Positions 1 through 22,759 of a DNA stretch of 64,000 nucleotides are shown piece by piece. Positions within the stretch are counted from its first letter, which is position 1, and every line of letters starts with the position of its first letter. Where the stretch lies: IMG/VR virus record IMGVR_UViG_3300044614_001923; one strand, 5' to 3'. Position numbers and translations under genes: made by a program. Source of the DNA: a virus. Taxonomy: Duplodnaviria > Caudoviricetes. The notes beneath the pieces are model-generated. The model was not told where the DNA came from. It did no database searches and saw nothing but the letters and a program-made list of their open reading frames with translations.

Positions 1-261
1 CAACCATAAAGTTCCATCAGTTTTAATTGCAGCAGAATGCCCCAATCCACCATCAACTTGTTTCCAATTAGTTCCTCCAGCGAGAGTAGTAACTGGAGTT
101 GATTTTGTTACGACAATATTATTAATTCCAAGTTGTCCATATAAATTATATCCCCAAGTCCAAAGTTGATCACCAATCCATTGGTCTACTAACCAGGATT
201 CGGTAATGTAAGTTTGGTTTTCTAAGTCTCCTTCTGGAGTTCTAAAGTTGTTCGTGGGCAT
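1..261 (-). CDS. RCC1/BLIP-II repeat (beta-propeller) protein, 5' part only; runs off the window start
   Basis: Not in the ORF track; translated by hand from ATG at 261: MPTNNFRTPEGDLENQTYITESWLVDQWIGDQLWTWGYNLYGQLGINN...NWKQVDGGLGHSAAIKTDGTLWL. WGYNxYGQLG and HSAAIKTDGTLW are RCC1-repeat motifs. Overlaps the upstream gene by 20 nt. Confidence 0.85.
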   Translation of the reverse strand, partial: MPTNNFRTPEGDLENQTYITESWLVDQWIGDQLWTWGYNLYGQLGINNIVVTKSTPVTTLAGGTNWKQVDGGLGHSAAIKTDGTLWL

Positions 262-2257
262 CTAGACGCGCCTCCAGATCATCAATTCTCTTCTGCTGAT
301 CTTTAATCGCCTCTATCAGAACACCAATCAGCATATCATAGCAAACTGATTTCATTCCTTCTGGGTCTGTCTTAACTGCTTCTGGTAGAACCTTTTCTAC
401 ATCTTGTGCAATTACACCAACCGAAGGATCTCCACCATCTTTCCAATTAAATCTTACACCTTTAACTTCATTTAAGATCACAAATGGATCATCAATTCTT
501 TCAATATTCGCTTTGAGTCTTTCATCGGAGGTTGAAGTAAATGTATTTGCATACATTATACCTGAAGTATCAAGTCTTGCTGTAATAGGTTGCTCAGTTC
601 CTAATGTTCCAATACCAGTTCTGAATAAAAGTTCTCCTGGATAAGTTGATGACGCTCCACCAACAAAATCAATTTGACCACCTCTTTGTGAAGAGGAAGT
701 CATTCCTCCAGCAAAGATTGATAATCTTCCTCCATTACTTCCCGAAAAAATTGTCGTTGGTATATCAGTATTATTAGAAGTTACTAAAAGATGCCCAACA
801 CCACCAGAATTACTTACTCCTCCAATAAAATTAACTCTTGCAACGTTCGCTAAAGTAATTCCCAATCCAACATTAACATATCCACCAAAGTAAGCGTTAC
901 TATTTCCAAAATCTACTTGTGTAGAACCATTAATAATGGTGGTATTAAATCCTACATTTCCATTAAAGTAAGAATTCCCTTGAACATGAAACTTTTCAAC
1001 TGGATTTGTGGTTCCTATACCCAGATTGCCAGAAACATAAGCACCACCACCAACTTGAAGATATTGATTTGCAGTTCCAGTTCCCTGTGTAGTTCCAATA
1101 CCAACAAATACTGTTGTAGCATTTGTTAAGTTTCTGGTTTGAAGATAAATTGGTCTGGACTGTCCTGTTTTTGCAACATTAATATAACCAGCATCAATAT
1201 TATCATCATATCCCATCCACATAGTTCTTCCAGTATTTCCAGAAGAAAGCGCAAATGCGTGTGCTCCAGATTCACCAGCAGTAGAAGGATTTGTTCCTGA
1301 TTGTGTTACAAAAAGTCTAGATGTTGGATTTGTGGTTCCTATACCAAGATTATTACTTACATAAGCACCACCAGTAACTTGAAGTGTTTGTGATGCGGTT
1401 CCAGTTGAAGTTCCAGAACCAATCAAAATTGGTCCATTTGTAAATGTTGAAATTCCTGCAGATCTTAATAGAGTAACATCTACAGTTCCGTTTACTGCAG
1501 TTGAAACTCCAGATGTAGTTGAATATGTTGTTTGTGTAGCAAATCCAGCAGTTACTGCGTAAGTTGCTGATGTTGCTGATGTTGCTGATGTAGAAAGACC
1601 TGCAACAGTCGCATAACTGGATGTTGTAGAGAATCCAGTTGATGCTGCATAAGAAACACTACCAACTAATGTTGTTGCTGTTAAAATACCAGTAACAATT
1701 GCACCACCAGCAGTTGTTTGAAATTTCTTTACATTATCATGATAAAGTTCTACTGAACCATTTCCATTAAAAATTGCTGAGTTTTCTCCGCTAGGTGTTA
1801 TAATATTAACGCTAGTATTACTGATTAAATATAAATTTGCAGCAGCATTTGTAATATAACTATTATTATTTGCTCCGTTATGGAAAATTTGAAGATCATT
1901 TCCATCACCAAAGTATAAAGTATCATTATCACCAAAATAAGCGTGATTTTGGAAGGTTGAAACGCCAACTACCCTTAAATTTTGTGCAGTGGCAATACCA
2001 GTGACATTTACATTAACTGATGTGATTATTCCAGTAGCATTTAAATTCCGTAATGTATTAGTATTTGAAGAAACAATAGATTGTGCTGTTAAAATACCAG
2101 TAACATTAACATTACCAACAACTTCAACTTTTGCATTTGGAATAGTAGTTCCAATACCAATATTTTGTCCCTCTTGACTTTTAATATTGATATGTTTACT
2201 GGTATCTAATACCTCAATAAGATTTGCTATTTGCGATAACTCTCTATTATTAGTCAT
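242..2257 (-). CDS. Tail fibre protein with C-terminal intramolecular chaperone (Peptidase_S74-type)
   Basis: GIGTT shaft motifs; C-terminus TSDERLKANIERI...GVRFNWK...VGVIAQDVEKVLPEAV followed by a coiled coil. Confidence 0.9.
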   Translation of the reverse strand: MTNNRELSQIANLIEVLDTSKHINIKSQEGQNIGIGTTIPNAKVEVVGNVNVTGILTAQSIVSSNTNTLRNLNATGIITSVNVNVTGIATAQNLRVVGVSTFQNHAYFGDNDTLYFGDGNDLQIFHNGANNNSYITNAAANLYLISNTSVNIITPSGENSAIFNGNGSVELYHDNVKKFQTTAGGAIVTGILTATTLVGSVSYAASTGFSTTSSYATVAGLSTSATSATSATYAVTAGFATQTTYSTTSGVSTAVNGTVDVTLLRSAGISTFTNGPILIGSGTSTGTASQTLQVTGGAYVSNNLGIGTTNPTSRLFVTQSGTNPSTAGESGAHAFALSSGNTGRTMWMGYDDNIDAGYINVAKTGQSRPIYLQTRNLTNATTVFVGIGTTQGTGTANQYLQVGGGAYVSGNLGIGTTNPVEKFHVQGNSYFNGNVGFNTTIINGSTQVDFGNSNAYFGGYVNVGLGITLANVARVNFIGGVSNSGGVGHLLVTSNNTDIPTTIFSGSNGGRLSIFAGGMTSSSQRGGQIDFVGGASSTYPGELLFRTGIGTLGTEQPITARLDTSGIMYANTFTSTSDERLKANIERIDDPFVILNEVKGVRFNWKDGGDPSVGVIAQDVEKVLPEAVKTDPEGMKSVCYDMLIGVLIEAIKDQQKRIDDLEARLDAHEQL

Positions 2258-19200: not shown

Positions 19201-21619
19201 TGGATTCTTGAATAACATAACCATCAAGTGGTGGTCTTGCTAGTAAGAAACCTCTTGGAATTACATATCTTAAACGATAAATTGAATCAGAGAATGATCT
19301 AGTATCAGGTGTACGAGTAATATAAGTTCTTGCAGTAGCTTTATATGTAAGATCAGATATTGCATCTGTTATTGTATCAGTTGTTTGTGATATTTGAATG
19401 TACCATTGATTATTTGAAGAATCATATTGAATTGGATGTCCAATATCACCAGATTTTTTATCAGATACTCTACTGATTAACTTTAACTCAGATGTTTCGT
19501 TACTGTATATTTGCGTTTCTTGTCCAATAGTTGCTTCATTCAATGATTTAGCAAGTTTTATCTGTGTTGATCCAATTCCAGTTGCAACATCATTTGTAAT
19601 TACATAATACAAATTATTATTTGTCAGACCATCTGGAAGATGTCCAGTATCGGACATTATCCTGACGGTCTCTCCATTTTCAAAATCATGTGGTGCTTTA
19701 AATGTGATAATATTATTTGTTATTGAATTAGATACTCCATTGATTTTTTTAGAAACAATAGAAACTTTCTCTGAAGTATTTTCATTACTTCCGCCACTCA
19801 TTATAACTTTTGAGGAGTATAATTGAGATAAACCAGACTTAGTAATATTAATATTGATTAATTCATTTCTCTTTGCTCCAATTCTATATCCATCAGAAAT
19901 ATAATCTGGGATAATATCTTGGTTTAATTGATTATAAAGATATAATCTACCTGGAGTAGTTGCTGCATTAGTATTTTCTATATCAATTTGATAGAATTCA
20001 ACTGAGGTCTCTCTTTCCTCATTTTCTCTTGGTGGAATTACGTGAGTAATATATCCATAATCATCTCTTCTAAATGCAAGAGGTCTAAATCCTTTGGATA
20101 CAAGAGAAACAGCACCAAAGTTAGAGTTGGAGTTTGTGATTGAAAGATCACCACCAGATTCCGCAACAAAGTGATTTGCATATCCAATTGCAAATACTGA
20201 TACAATTTGGATAAAAGCATTATTTGATGCTTTGATATGGAAATTTTCTGATTCTGGTTTATATCTTGCTCTTGAATTAGAATACAAGTTAGAAACAGAA
20301 GTATTATCTAAATATGATCCTGTTTCATCATCATAAAGAACAAATGCATTATCATCTTTTTGCAGACCAATTCCAGTGAATTGGGCGACTACCATACTTT
20401 TGAATCCACTTGCCTTGCTTCCATCAGCATGTAATCCGCACATGCCAAATACTGAACGGAGTGAAATATTAAAGATGTATGGAGATGCTGAGGTCACAGT
20501 ATCACTAACAAGAACTAGAGATGCATTTGCAGTTGCATCTGCAGTTGGAGCAGCAATAAGTGGAGGATTCTGTACTTGATAACGAATTACCGATGAACTA
20601 ACAACTTCACTTATAACAAATTGTCCATTATAACCACCAGAATCAACATTTTGAATTTGAATAGGCGTATCTACATCTAGACCTGAAAGTGGTTCTTGTA
20701 ATTCTACAGTAATTGTTGTGCTAGAATCAATTGCATTTCCTGCATAAATTGAAGATATTAATGTCTCTTCTCCAGTTGATCCAACAATTCTAAATTCATC
20801 AACTTTAGTTTGAACATCAATACTTGTTGATGGATAATCTGGAAATATATTTCTTCCACTTGACTCGCCATATGCCAAACCAATTTTTTCATAATACATG
20901 TCAAGATCTGTTCTACCAGCATTAAAATTGCTGATAAAGTCATCATTGATTTTGACATTATTAACACCATCAGCGTACTCAAATACGGTTAATTTGTGGT
21001 GAGAAAAATTTGGAACAAATAGATTAGTTGTATAGTCTTTATAAATGTTTCCATTTGGAGCACCATCAAGAATAGTGAATTGCCAAATATAGGAAGAACC
21101 AGTTAATCTAAAAATTGCAGATCTCTCGATTTCATTATTTTGAGGATCTGGAACGTATTTTGGTCTAATTCTAGTTTTTCTGAGGTCTAATCCAACAATA
21201 GATGTTCCTCTTGGAATAATTACTCCACCATGAACACTATTAAACTTGTATAATTGATTATCTTCAGAGTTTAAATTAAAATCAGAAGTTCCACTAAATG
21301 GTGGGAAATTACTTGAGGTATCACTATTTCTAAGTAAGAAATTGTTTGTACCATTAGGTATCCATCCAGGTCTATTATCTACAATGTGATCACCTGGATA
21401 TAGGAGAATTGTTGTCTTACCAAACCTATCATTATCCAGACCTCTTTGATAAGAAAATCTAGCTGCTTCAATTAATGCCCTTTGAATTGTTTTGAAAGGA
21501 CGAGCAAGAGAATTGCCTTGATTTTCTACACTATCTGTAGAATCTAGACTTGATGGGTCAACATATAATATTTCCCCTTTGATGTTCTTGAGAAAATTAT
21601 CTAAGCGGCTTAGACCCAT
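16235..21619 (-). CDS. Large virion structural protein with N-terminal parallel beta-helix-like region
   Basis: MGLSRLDNFLKN...ARPFKTIQRAL motif typical of pectin-lyase-like folds; repeated HGxxxGxxVxI beta domains; C-terminal fibre segment. Confidence 0.7.
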   Translation of the reverse strand: MGLSRLDNFLKNIKGEILYVDPSSLDSTDSVENQGNSLARPFKTIQRALIEAARFSYQRGLDNDRFGKTTILLYPGDHIVDNRPGWIPNGTNNFLLRNSDTSSNFPPFSGTSDFNLNSEDNQLYKFNSVHGGVIIPRGTSIVGLDLRKTRIRPKYVPDPQNNEIERSAIFRLTGSSYIWQFTILDGAPNGNIYKDYTTNLFVPNFSHHKLTVFEYADGVNNVKINDDFISNFNAGRTDLDMYYEKIGLAYGESSGRNIFPDYPSTSIDVQTKVDEFRIVGSTGEETLISSIYAGNAIDSSTTITVELQEPLSGLDVDTPIQIQNVDSGGYNGQFVISEVVSSSVIRYQVQNPPLIAAPTADATANASLVLVSDTVTSASPYIFNISLRSVFGMCGLHADGSKASGFKSMVVAQFTGIGLQKDDNAFVLYDDETGSYLDNTSVSNLYSNSRARYKPESENFHIKASNNAFIQIVSVFAIGYANHFVAESGGDLSITNSNSNFGAVSLVSKGFRPLAFRRDDYGYITHVIPPRENEERETSVEFYQIDIENTNAATTPGRLYLYNQLNQDIIPDYISDGYRIGAKRNELININITKSGLSQLYSSKVIMSGGSNENTSEKVSIVSKKINGVSNSITNNIITFKAPHDFENGETVRIMSDTGHLPDGLTNNNLYYVITNDVATGIGSTQIKLAKSLNEATIGQETQIYSNETSELKLISRVSDKKSGDIGHPIQYDSSNNQWYIQISQTTDTITDAISDLTYKATARTYITRTPDTRSFSDSIYRLRYVIPRGFLLARPPLDGYVIQESSTTTAETDEEILKYLSTDNQELNSTYELRNFRFISNATWNSGVATITTELPHKLTAGNTVRLKNISSIENLSATDDLGFNGEFTVLSVSTRRRFTVALTTNPGIFQNDISTRTTALPYLTRTKYKETYVVYRVQEIQSYIPGERDGVYHLVVTNASNSPNISPFDVYKFGQPIENLYPQINRDNFDSDPLPSRSFASRSTIGQVVLNDPQRSVTKETINKNFIDSKNGIDIQNIASSVGGYNHTITTKHDHGLNAITKVSIANSGLNYGTGIGVSEVFYNARLVGLGTTVVGSDATAIVRIDSVSGGLLDVNIIDGGSAYGVGNTLAVVGIATTTGHTIGIVSVTSIYNNVGDVLSVQGIIPDTLDQYNTVYRITNISIGASTSIDVESAHFVEIANPGTGIGVTATLNAYALLGSPSVGITSIRYNVNTGIATFTSSGSHGFAINNKVKIGGASISSYNDDFIVKKVISKTQFELNVGVQTTTIPTGTIYAYREALTSNAGSVTNKNENISGRMVPYYAGITTTLYGEVTGPDIDNIVIFNAVNLGLKIGDYLAIDDEIVRIRENVTQNEIPVFRGVLGTFKSGHLIGSKVFKINPVPIELRRNSIIRASGHTFEYLGFGPGNYSTSLPDRQDRKLSGPEEIAATSLKMDGGVAVYTAMNGEGSFFIGNKKINSATGQEEVFNAPVPTVTGEDLDIQGINIGFDVLSPLEVTISRSVKVEGGPDGNIISRFDGPVVFSNRLTSTSDKGIEAVSLYLQGNQLTSKKYTVGVSAPSDIGSPGDVVFNSNPQSGGHLGWVYTTDNEWEQFGAIKVGNTFVGIWSGTFTGDGSGLFNVSDVWKRDISGVGLVTTSSVGIGTTVAISGTALYVQGRTLINGITTFANTTESSGISSGSIVIKGGVGIEKSVNIGGDFSVVGVATFSDIYVDRIVGYSTFAEDIRFLKNIDVDGVLTTEHLAVTGIATMQTNLYIRNQSIRNFVNGISIIFGI

Positions 21620-21659
21620 TGTATTAACGCTATATGTTCTGTTATGTTTATTTATTCAC

Positions 21660-21686
21660 AACAAAACCCCCGATTACTCGGAGGTT
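21660..21686 (-). terminator. Intrinsic terminator
   Basis: Minus strand AACCTCCGA-GTAA-TCGGGGGTT-TTGTT: 9-bp stem, GNRA loop, U-rich tail. Confidence 0.8.
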
Positions 21687-21728
21687 CATGAAGTCACACG
21701 GAAGGGTCTGGTTTTTTGTATCGCTACT
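21660..21728 (-). ncRNA. Candidate ~70-nt small RNA
   Basis: ORF-less interval between a perfect sigma70 promoter and a terminator; family not recognised. Confidence 0.5.
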
Positions 21729-21733
21729 TATAT

Positions 21734-21762
21734 ATTATAAGATATTTAATTATTTTTGTCAA
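21734..21762 (-). promoter_or_regulatory. Consensus sigma70 (early) promoter
   Basis: TTGACA (21757-21762), 17-nt spacer, TATAAT (21734-21739). Confidence 0.85.
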
Positions 21763-21925
21763 GTTTACTACTTAGAAGGTATTCGACAGTATTTGCAACG
21801 TCATTCATTGCGAGTCTTAAATCTGGTCTTTGACCAGATTCTTGTTTAACTATGGGTCTTGAGTCCTCAGTTAGAGTCCACCTCCACTGCCCCATGTCTT
21901 TACAATACCACAAATTAATTTTCAT
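21746..21925 (-). CDS. Small hypothetical protein (59 aa)
   Basis: Not in the track; hand translation MKINLWYCKDMGQWRWTLTEDSRPIVKQESGQRPDLRLAMNDVANTVEYLLSSKLDKNN; fills the gap downstream of the tRNAs. Confidence 0.75.
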   Translation of the reverse strand: MKINLWYCKDMGQWRWTLTEDSRPIVKQESGQRPDLRLAMNDVANTVEYLLSSKLDKNN

Positions 21926-21945
21926 TTACTTCTAATGTTAATGTA

Positions 21946-22027
21946 TGTCGATGAAAGGACTTGAACCTTCAAGGATTGCTCCACTGGAACCTAAACCCAG
22001 CGCGTATACCAATTCCGCCACATCGAC
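21946..22027 (-). tRNA. trnL: tRNA-Leu (anticodon TAG), no encoded CCA
   Basis: GTCGATGTGGCGGAATTGGTATACGCGCTGGGTT-TAG-GTTCCAG..long variable arm..GGTTCAAGTCC..CATCGACA; full cloverleaf. Confidence 0.95.
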
Positions 22028-22031
22028 AGAG

Positions 22032-22103
22032 AGCCCCCGACTGGATTTGAACCAGCGACCAACGGTTTACAAAACCGTTGCTCTACCACTGAGCTACAAG
22101 GGC
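22032..22103 (-). tRNA. trnT: tRNA-Thr (anticodon TGT), no encoded CCA
   Basis: GCCCTTGTAGCTCAGTGGTAGAGCAACGGTTT-TGT-AAACCGTTGGTCGCTGGTTCAAATCCAGTCGGGGGCT; full cloverleaf. Confidence 0.95.
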
Positions 22104-22104
22104 A

Positions 22105-22383
22105 CTAATCACAAGGAAGACATTCTGGATTTTCCAGATCCAATTCGAAAAAACATGGATGACATTCTTCCATAATAAGATAACCAGAAGATTTATATAA
22201 CCTTTCAGCATCATAAATTAAATTATGATTCGCCATAGATATGATCTCTGGATCATCTGTTGCAATTTCGGGAAGTTCATCAAAAGTAAAAGGTACTTCA
22301 TTAATAAAGTACATTTTTACAATCATTATGAGGTCTTCATCAAATTTGTACCAACAGTATCTATGAGTTATTTTATGCTTCAT
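22105..22383 (-). CDS. Hypothetical protein
   Basis: 92-aa acidic ORF with SD-like GAAGG upstream; ends 1 nt before tRNA-Thr. Confidence 0.75.
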   Translation of the reverse strand: MKHKITHRYCWYKFDEDLIMIVKMYFINEVPFTFDELPEIATDDPEIISMANHNLIYDAERLYKSSGYLIMEECHPCFFELDLENPECLPCD

Positions 22384-22522
22384 AGTTACAATTCCTTCTA
22401 TTATATGTAGAAGGTTGGGATAGTGAGTTAAAACTCACACTTTAAAAAAGTAATAAGGGCAAAAATTTGAGGAATTTTTTTTCGCCCTAAAATGGAATTA
22501 AAAGTTGATTTTCTCTGAGAAA

Positions 22523-22705
22523 TTAAAAAGGATTTGAATAAACTAGATTATCTTCATGTACCTGATTACGAACAACCTCAAGAACATTCATAAACTGATC
22601 TACAGTTTGGCAGGTCACTTGCTTTTCTGAACCTTCACTGGAGTACAGATACACTGTACGCTTGATAGGGTCTACCACGCAACGTGAGAGGTACTCGTCT
22701 TGCAT
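22523..22705 (-). CDS. Hypothetical protein (60 aa)
   Basis: ORF preceded by a sigma70 promoter, in strand register with its neighbours. Confidence 0.75.
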   Translation of the reverse strand: MQDEYLSRCVVDPIKRTVYLYSSEGSEKQVTCQTVDQFMNVLEVVRNQVHEDNLVYSNPF

Positions 22706-22730
22706 TTGGTCATCCGTTGATTACCTTAGT

Positions 22731-22759
22731 AATATAGCAGGTCCTATGGTCCGTGTCAA
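22731..22759 (-). promoter_or_regulatory. Sigma70 promoter with extended -10
   Basis: TTGACA, 17 nt, (TGc)TATATT. Confidence 0.75.

Follow-up and report, generated by a model that had tools for sequence, protein, structure and literature searches.

A predicted small RNA gene of T4-like cyanophages with conserved complementarity to the 3' half of host tRNA-Val(CAC)

We analyzed a 64-kb stretch of a lake cyanophage, a T4-like cyanomyovirus (IMG/VR record IMGVR_UViG_3300044614_001923; 64,000 nucleotides (nt), hereafter the window), around a small-RNA transcription unit at 21660-21762. The best-matching deposited phage genomes are only about 70% identical, and none of them is a close relative. 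An original prediction, made from the letters of the DNA, had described this unit as a stand-alone, trans-acting small RNA (sRNA) with an unstructured seed and a terminator. As far as sequence can tell, the unit is confirmed, and the proposed seed-bearing sRNA can now be described more precisely as antisense to the 3' half of a host transfer RNA (tRNA), tRNA-Val(CAC). We are highly confident that the unit is a conserved RNA gene complementary to this tRNA. That the RNA acts by pairing with tRNA-Val(CAC) we consider somewhat better than an even bet (a probability of roughly 0.55), and the phage probably uses the RNA to disable this tRNA.

The evidence for the target begins with the seed. Its complement, the 13-mer TTCACACGGAAGG, gave the only recurrent match in 151 Cyanobiaceae genomes when up to one mismatch was allowed, all other matches remaining at control level. 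Exact copies are found in 86 of the 151 genomes, once in nearly all, as compared with 4 matches in total for the reversed control. When 29 of these sites were examined, 28 fell in a tRNA gene, 72 nt long and identified by ARAGORN as tRNA-Val(cac), where the 13-mer covers the anticodon loop together with the 3' anticodon stem strand. Of 28 loci from genomes of Synechococcus/Cyanobium size, 27 have an identical copy of this gene (reference copy L145:1471-1542:+). Alignment to the reverse complement of the tRNA shows that the whole RNA body is a collinear, shortened antisense copy of the tRNA-Val(CAC) 3' half. From the 5' end on, GGCGAUAC(UG) pairs with the 3' strands of the acceptor and the T stem, AACCAG with the 5' strand of the T stem, (G)ACCCC complements the variable loop, UUCC the 3' side of the anticodon stem, and an invariant GUGUGA the anticodon loop UCACAC. 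In the architecture to which the window RNA belongs, here called type A, the T-loop complement is deleted; a second architecture, type B, keeps the T-arm complement and carries AAAAA in place of CUUCC. The window copy retains three blocks (Table 1), with 13 nt of contiguous perfect pairing. As the seed and two further blocks are all antisense to tRNA-Val(CAC), the likely target is the tRNA rather than messenger RNAs (mRNAs).

This complementarity is also specific among tRNAs. When 33 distinct phage RNAs were compared with 29 tRNAs of one host genome, Val(cac) was the best antisense partner for 29, and for the remaining 4, all of type B, Val(gac), which shares its acceptor and T arms with Val(cac), was ahead by one point. 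Antisense scores exceeded those of shuffled sequences by z values of 5-15 (7.3 for the window RNA), and sense-strand scores were at background. Val(cac) likewise gave the lowest duplex energy for 16 of 17 RNAs. The predicted cofold of the window RNA with the tRNA is a three-block duplex in which the terminator stays intact, with a free-energy change (ddG) of -13.8 kcal/mol. We also compared 43 distinct ARAGORN tRNAs of the same host with about 1 Mb of phage DNA, phage tRNA genes excluded, for exact matches of at least 13 nt. Antisense matches to Val(cac) were by far the commonest (32, and the window's own), followed by sense matches of an intron-split phage tRNA gene. Antisense copies of other host tRNAs were sought with 17-mers as well, but with up to 3 mismatches the background was too high; in the exact 13-mer scan only anti-Val(cac) was recurrent. 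Finally, with laxer filters, R1, the covariance model of the RNA described below, gave a weak full-length match (13-23 bits) to the antisense strand of the tRNA-Val(cac) gene in 5 of 5 host genomes. A phage gene that resembles tRNA-Leu(CAG) lies at L005:213-476 (also in L006 and L052-L054). It is apparently split by a group I intron, on the basis of an RF00028 match at 227..416 and exact tRNA-Leu(cag) matches flanking it at 213 and 457.

The second line of evidence is conservation. We gathered 80 IMG/VR loci by the N-terminus of the tail-fibre protein encoded next to the unit and examined the 200 nt upstream of each fibre gene. About half of the loci show a promoter, a short RNA and a terminator ahead of the late promoter, and the gene 5' of this unit varies between loci. 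Since the same unit recurs in many related phages with its seed conserved, it is not a chance pairing of a promoter and a terminator, and the originally proposed layout is supported. An alignment of 17 homologous RNAs, including the window copy (A1), has an invariant CGAU near the 5' end and an invariant GUGUG in the middle. Throughout type A, CCUUCCGUGUG is invariant and CCUUCC always precedes GUGUG, which itself is present in every copy. The terminator stems differ in sequence among relatives, each still folding strongly. What we find is thus the opposite of a fixed terminator with a drifting seed: the seed is invariant, while the stems vary and yet pair. These are folds of single sequences; covariation analysis with MAFFT and RNAalifold captured only 4 pairs, as stems of unequal length were misaligned.

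The covariance model R1, built on A1, finds a single match in the window (21655..21731, minus strand, 63.9 bits, E = 4e-13), although it should be noted that the window sequence is among the 17 model builders. Overall, R1 gave 81 matches, one per locus or genome, representing 56 distinct sequences with scores of 44-85 bits (52-85 for complete copies). Independent support comes from 64 of these matches, which lie in loci outside model building, and an exact 15-mer scan of IMG/VR brought dozens more carrier loci for R1. In the isolates Sf-FR1 and S-SCSM2R, R1 has one match per whole genome, directly 5' of the fibre gene. The window RNA takes the usual position too, after an early unit with a tRNA cluster and with its terminator just before a late promoter, most often that of the fibre gene. 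In relatives with a promoter of their own, the -10 hexamer stands 6-7 nt before GGCGAUAC, at which the complementarity begins. About a dozen type A relatives, including Sf-FR1, have no promoter, and their RNA begins 2 nt after a phage tRNA gene; a start so close to the tRNA 3' end suggests that these copies are released by tRNA processing. As promoter or processing site each yields the same 5' end, GGCGAUAC, it would appear that the RNA rather than the DNA is under selection.

Searches by other means placed the RNA in no described family. In gathering-threshold Rfam scans of the whole window and 8 relatives, nothing was detected beyond tRNAs, a group I intron and a glutamine riboswitch (the last in the window itself, RF01739, 45654-45752, minus strand, 40.7 bits), and a scan of 21600..21800 with E-values up to 10 gave only chance-level matches. 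When the locus was compared by BLAST with 50,697 phage records, default settings returned matches for the 59-amino-acid (aa) open reading frame (ORF) upstream of the RNA alone; with E up to 10, the RNA matched two isolates. BLAST is therefore too insensitive for such a short RNA. No host homologue was detected by R1 in the 151 Cyanobiaceae genomes, where the best scores were 25 bits; one of these matches covered only the terminator and one, of full length, was a host Yfr2 gene. The isolates in which either this RNA or the second class described next was found are all Synechococcus phages, which is weak information given the insensitivity of BLAST here.

A second class of RNAs, type C, aims at the same tRNA from the other side. 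In S-SM2, Bellamy and others, it starts with (C)CGUGUGAAGGAAGUG right after the -10 hexamer, at the same genomic spot. The complementarity of type C RNAs takes in the anticodon loop and the 5' anticodon stem strand and runs on collinearly, over up to 18 + 10 nt, as far as the 5' acceptor strand. The complement of the anticodon loop is shared by types A, B and C. More than 120 IMG/VR stretches contain a 15-mer typical of type C, and its contexts include sigma-70-type -10 boxes (some of them extended -10 boxes, TGTGATATAAT) and late TAAATA motifs (loci L326-L445 among others). The two classes share the host tRNA, the invariant GUGUGA, a short length, an end at a terminator, restriction to phages and a frequent position in or near tRNA clusters. 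They differ in that type C is about 42-44 nt long, carries the loop complement at its 5' end and covers the 5' half of the tRNA, whereas in the window RNA the loop complement lies near the middle and the 3' half is covered (acceptor strand, T stem, variable loop and 3' anticodon stem). In the window RNA, GUGUGA is followed by CUUCAUG and not by AGGAAGUG, and the motif is internal rather than 5'-terminal; under R1, type C loci reach only 20-21 bits, and this through the terminator. By its sequence, the window RNA is thus a sister class of type C and not a member, and no type C copy was found in the window. Two further arrangements of type C should be mentioned. In Syn30 (L086:1503-1560) and S-M1 (L087:1497-1557), a type C RNA with a hairpin follows the major capsid gene, and in about 8 loci type C is a 5' leader fused directly to a phage tRNA-Gly(UCC) gene.

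A possible element against another tRNA was noted in Sf-FR1 (PV340855.1, 120958-120975; L227), where 18 nt are perfectly antisense to part of host tRNA-Gly(CCC), namely its anticodon arm; this tRNA, too, decodes just one codon that ends in G. The match is part of a hairpin flanked by a CTAAATA late motif on one side and a gene's ATG on the other. It may be a second anti-tRNA element or chance (about 0.01-0.07 such matches expected).

The anatomy of the window locus is given in Table 1. The promoter facing a terminator with a GNRA loop, on which the original prediction was built, is present on the minus strand and would yield an RNA of about 65 nt. This predicted promoter, TTGACA-N17-TATAAT, matches all 12 positions of the sigma-70-type early promoter of T4-like cyanophages and occurs exactly only once in the 64-kb window. 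With up to one mismatch, the pattern has 3 matches where 1.26 are expected, so promoter-likeness alone is weak evidence. Between the predicted start and the terminator lies the RNA body of about 40 nt, mostly unpaired. The predicted terminator is a GC-rich hairpin, CCUCCGA-GUAA-UCGGGGG, followed by the U-run UUUUGUUG. It folds with -17.7 kcal/mol (z = -3.95), and none of 200 shuffled sequences was as stable. As the stem absorbs part of the U-run, the hairpin is missed by a simple terminator scan. The RNA is non-coding, as had been proposed from the lack of an ORF led by a Shine-Dalgarno sequence: its only ATG opens a frame of 13 codons that runs through the terminator, and this ATG is lacking in all 55 other distinct homologues.

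Table 1 Features of the RNA locus and its neighbourhood in the window
Feature	Position	Strand	Remarks
-35 hexamer TTGACA	21757..21762	minus	overlaps Leu-Asp-Lys codons near the end of the 59-aa ORF
-10 hexamer TATAAT	21734..21739	minus	17-nt spacer to -35; predicted start G21727
Predicted non-coding RNA of ~65 nt (type A anti-tRNA-Val RNA)	about 21663..21727	minus	R1 covariance match; no conserved ORF
Block 1, GCGAUAC	21718..21724	minus	antisense to the junction of acceptor 3' strand and T stem (GUAUCGC) of host tRNA-Val(CAC)
Block 2, AACCAG	21708..21713	minus	antisense to T-stem 5' strand (CUGGUU); T-loop complement deleted
Block 3 (seed), ACCCUUCCGUGUGA	21694..21707	minus	13 nt, 21706..21694, perfectly complementary to anticodon loop, 3' anticodon stem and start of variable loop
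Intrinsic terminator (predicted)	21663..21686	minus	stem 21684..21667, GUAA loop, AA/UU extension, then U-run
Late-promoter-like motif AATAAATA (21656..21649) with the conserved fibre-gene leader CATAACAGAAC	21636..21656	minus	3' of the terminator
Tail-fibre gene, 1794 aa	16235..21619	minus	context; ATG at 21619
Upstream early unit	21746..22759	minus	promoter TTGACA-17-TATATT 22759..22731, then two small ORFs, two tRNAs and the 59-aa ORF
tRNA-Thr(UGU)	22103..22031	minus	in the upstream early unit
tRNA-Leu(UAG)	22028..21945	minus	in the upstream early unit
59-aa Trp-rich ORF	21925..21746	minus	adjoins the tRNAs; kept in many cyanophages

The motif AATAAATA, which from general knowledge of T4-like phages we take to be a late promoter, precedes the fibre ATG together with the leader in 80 of the 80 IMG/VR loci, and also in S-SM2 and SynMITS9220M01. 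A terminator that insulates the late gene, as originally suggested, fits this arrangement, as the late promoter of the fibre gene sits 3' of the terminator in all 80 relatives. The leader itself, (G/C)ATAAATAATCCATAAC(A/G)GAAC, is near letter-perfect across these 80 otherwise diverged phages (50 nt before the ATG; L001, L002, L004-L083), and since such conservation far exceeds what a promoter needs, the leader may have a role of its own. On the other side of the unit, S-SRM01 (L003:2513-2758) carries a homologue of the 59-aa ORF followed by a true tRNA-Val(UAC) gene, at the place where the window phage has the anti-tRNA-Val RNA.

The choice of target can be considered in terms of codon usage. 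tRNA-Val(CAC) reads only GUG. This codon makes up 49-55% of the valine codons of hosts (31-36 per 1000 codons), as opposed to 3.7% in the ORFs of the window (2.7 per 1000). As GUG thus stands for about half of the host valines and only about 4% of those of the phage, loss of the tRNA would hurt host translation far more than that of the phage. Valine and leucine are the host codon families with the highest share of G-ending codons and would therefore be the best points for a selective strike. Among the IMG/VR loci L004-L083, the median GTG share of valine codons is 0.09 in carriers (41 loci) and 0.13 in non-carriers (40 loci), and the GC content at third codon positions is higher in carriers despite their lower GTG share (0.23 vs 0.18); the loci in this comparison are phylogenetically non-independent. 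tRNA-Val(cac) was not found in five small Prochlorococcus genomes, in which Val(gac) and Val(tac) are present, and this tRNA should thus be dispensable in principle, with hosts differing in whether they have it. The carriers Bellamy and RN05-S encode a tRNA-Val(UAC) whose anticodon arm does not match the RNA.

From these data, we infer that the RNA would be transcribed, pair in the cell and affect translation in the following way. It would be made early from its own sigma-70-type promoter and ended by the intrinsic terminator or, in some relatives, be cut from the 3' trailer of a phage tRNA transcript. First docking would take place at the exposed anticodon loop, between GUGUGA and UCACAC, from where the duplex could spread by strand invasion through the anticodon stem, the variable loop, the T stem and the acceptor strand. 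The tRNA or its precursor would be unfolded or sequestered, perhaps exposed to ribonucleases, and removed from translation. Host mRNAs rich in GUG would then stall, while phage mRNAs poor in GUG would go on, aided by a phage tRNA-Val(UAC) that the RNA does not match. As for a purpose, we tentatively propose, at less than even odds, codon-selective host shut-off by half-length antisense RNAs, with the 3'-half type acting here and the 5'-half type in other phages.

Several points weigh against pairing with tRNA-Val(CAC) and should be considered with the above. Mature tRNA is tightly folded and modified, so that only the 7-nt anticodon loop is freely accessible, and the rest requires unfolding or a chaperone. 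Moreover, tRNAs are abundant, and stoichiometric sequestration would therefore need very high sRNA levels. The window copy itself is imperfect, with 13 nt and blocks of 7 and 6 nt and two small deletions relative to a perfect antisense, and Val(gac) nearly ties with Val(cac) for this copy (29 vs 31). Substitutions in the blocks are suggestive, many of them being C-to-U changes by which G.U pairs are retained, with G-to-A changes located at the edges of blocks, but neutral transitions would produce such a pattern too. With regard to codon usage, the phage avoids all G-ending codons (1.5-10%), which means that its low use of GUG is not specific, and the host values come from ORFs of host loci.

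The difficulty of unfolding a mature, modified tRNA makes it a serious alternative that the RNA binds cleaved halves or precursors. In its most developed form, which we consider improbable, the RNA would serve counter-defence, binding the 3' half of a tRNA-Val(CAC) cut in the anticodon loop, or shielding the loop from a host anticodon nuclease, with the sister RNA binding the 5' half. Defences that cut tRNAs and phage countermeasures are established (PMC10264068, PMC11464382). The two RNA classes each cover exactly one half and the loop, free halves would be single-stranded and easy to pair, and the RNAs sit in or beside phage tRNA clusters. Against this, a shielded loop could not decode either, the neighbourhood of the locus showed no ligase or repair gene, although no systematic search was made, and we know of no valine-specific anticodon nuclease in picocyanobacteria.

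An sRNA directed at mRNAs is still less likely. By this account, the pyrimidine-rich seed would pair with ribosome-binding sites of host or phage as that of Yfr1 does, the likeness to a tRNA being a by-product of origin. The Yfr1-type layout suits it, and CCCUUCC could pair with Shine-Dalgarno regions of the GGAAGGG type. When up to one mismatch is allowed, however, the 13-nt seed complement recurs among hosts in the tRNA gene alone, and mRNA targeting leaves unexplained two further in-order blocks that match the tRNA far from the seed.

A similarly low probability applies to a non-functional relic, an inverted and decaying tRNA-Val fragment such as a recombination scar or att-like core, which by chance would have a promoter on one side and the upstream operon's terminator on the other. 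In favour of this, phage tRNA clusters are known hot spots of recombination, integrating phages have att cores that duplicate the 3' half of a tRNA gene, and the true tRNA-Val(UAC) gene of S-SRM01 lies right after its 59-aa ORF homologue. A relic is, however, difficult to reconcile with the same blocks being kept in 56 distinct copies while spacers and stems drift, with every copy being antisense to local transcription, and with the start of complementarity coinciding with the start of the RNA, at a promoter or at a tRNA-processing site. Other architectures also aim at the same tRNA from other sites in the genome. These are lytic T4-like phages, with relatives classed as Kyanoviridae (no integrase search was made). 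The more specific candidate of an attP core is not supported. In place of a long exact identity, the longest stretch is 13 nt for the window copy and up to 15 nt among its type A relatives, and as the T loop is deleted, no tRNA could be restored.

Very unlikely, in our view, is a sponge for the host sRNA Yfr1 that mimics Yfr2. GUGUGA complements the UCACAC of the Yfr1 motif and type C resembles the 5' end of Yfr2, but the window RNA has only 6 nt of complementarity to Yfr1, compared with 13+7+6 to the tRNA, type C fits the tRNA perfectly over 15-18 nt and Yfr1 only with two bulges, and the Rfam model of Yfr2, Cyano-1 (RF01701), does not match the phage RNAs. This candidate was dropped in view of the longer, perfect and collinear tRNA matches and the failure of RF01701. 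The unlikeliest account, a mere terminator of the upstream tRNA and small-ORF operon with a chance promoter-like site in the end of the 59-aa ORF, can point to a TTGACA partly fixed by Leu-Asp codons, to local promoter-like sites that are not enriched (20 vs 25.8 expected) and to relatives such as L070, L064 and L053 that have the same terminator with no RNA body, and is already contradicted by the conservation data, in which no part is better conserved than the RNA body that separates promoter and terminator, and in which this body recurs behind unrelated upstream genes.

Phages reshape the tRNA pool of their hosts by proteins, such as nucleases and repair enzymes, and by tRNA genes of their own. 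If pairing with tRNA-Val(CAC) holds true, an RNA dedicated to one host tRNA would represent a new class of phage-host interaction and a new class of target for bacterial-type small RNAs. It would be the first natural sRNA with a mature tRNA as its dedicated target and a new viral way to tilt translation. It would also offer a reason for the presence of tRNA clusters with extra small RNAs in AT-rich phages, and could matter for the takeover by cyanophages of highly abundant phototrophs of lakes and oceans. The case is testable, as the target tRNA is nearly invariant across marine and freshwater Synechococcus/Cyanobium and the carriers S-SM2, Bellamy, Sf-FR1 and S-SCSM2R belong to cultured phage-host pairs. 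One would expect tRNA-Val(CAC) to be lost or trapped and ribosomes to stall at GUG.

With respect to previously described systems, the class appears to be new, having no Rfam family, no host homologue and no paper, although absence from the literature searched is not proof of novelty. In the full texts searched, which were those available without subscription, no paper described a phage RNA directed against a host tRNA by antisense pairing. For cyanophages, the only entries in a 2025 review of phage sRNAs are CfrI and four Rfam-type motifs (abiF, wcaG, manA and glnA) (PMC12197685). In layout the RNA resembles Yfr1, as the original prediction had proposed; the layout holds, with a short sRNA of the abundant type, a 5' end that is free or forms a small hairpin, a conserved pyrimidine-rich motif left unpaired and a terminator hairpin, and membership in the family does not, no Rfam family, Yfr-type or other, being significant. 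Yfr1 is encoded by the host and pairs with mRNAs and Yfr2 (PMC6778093), and its motif, ACUCCUCACAC, differs from that of the window RNA, CCCUUCCGUGUGA. The unpaired ACUCCUCACAC that stands between two stem-loops in Yfr1 is absent from 21655..21733, and Yfr-type families are absent from the Rfam matches to 21600..21800 up to E = 10. With Yfr2 (RF01701, Cyano-1), the phage RNAs share a conserved motif aimed at a small stable RNA and not at an mRNA (PMC2518516, PMC6778093), and they lack its GGAAACA stem-loop. RF01701 (gathering threshold 41 bits) had no match in 21600..21800 at E up to 10, nor at the sRNA loci of five whole phage records, and scored 58 bits at a host locus used as positive control (L107).

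One relation within the host should be mentioned here. Removal of two U from the tRNA-Val(CAC) stretch ACUUCCUUCACAC gives the ultraconserved Yfr1 motif ACUCCUCACAC (host L107:1503-1603(-), L145:1471-1542(+)), which is why the 5' end of Yfr2 (GUGUGAGGAGUGC, L107) resembles a tRNA-Val antisense.

More distant parallels are found among RNAs linked to tRNAs. The 3' external transcribed spacer of the E. coli glyW-cysT-leuZ tRNA operon is an sRNA sponge. In about a dozen relatives of the window RNA, a base-pairing RNA would likewise be freed by tRNA 3' processing; the window copy differs in having its own promoter, and the partner is a tRNA rather than sRNAs. The retroviral primer-binding site pairs with the 3' acceptor and T region of a tRNA, and the T-box specifier pairs with the anticodon. 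The phage RNA resembles both in base pairing with parts of a tRNA and differs from both in that no reverse transcriptase, T-box motif or Rfam T-box match accompanies it, and in that here one short RNA complements almost the whole 3' half of the tRNA.

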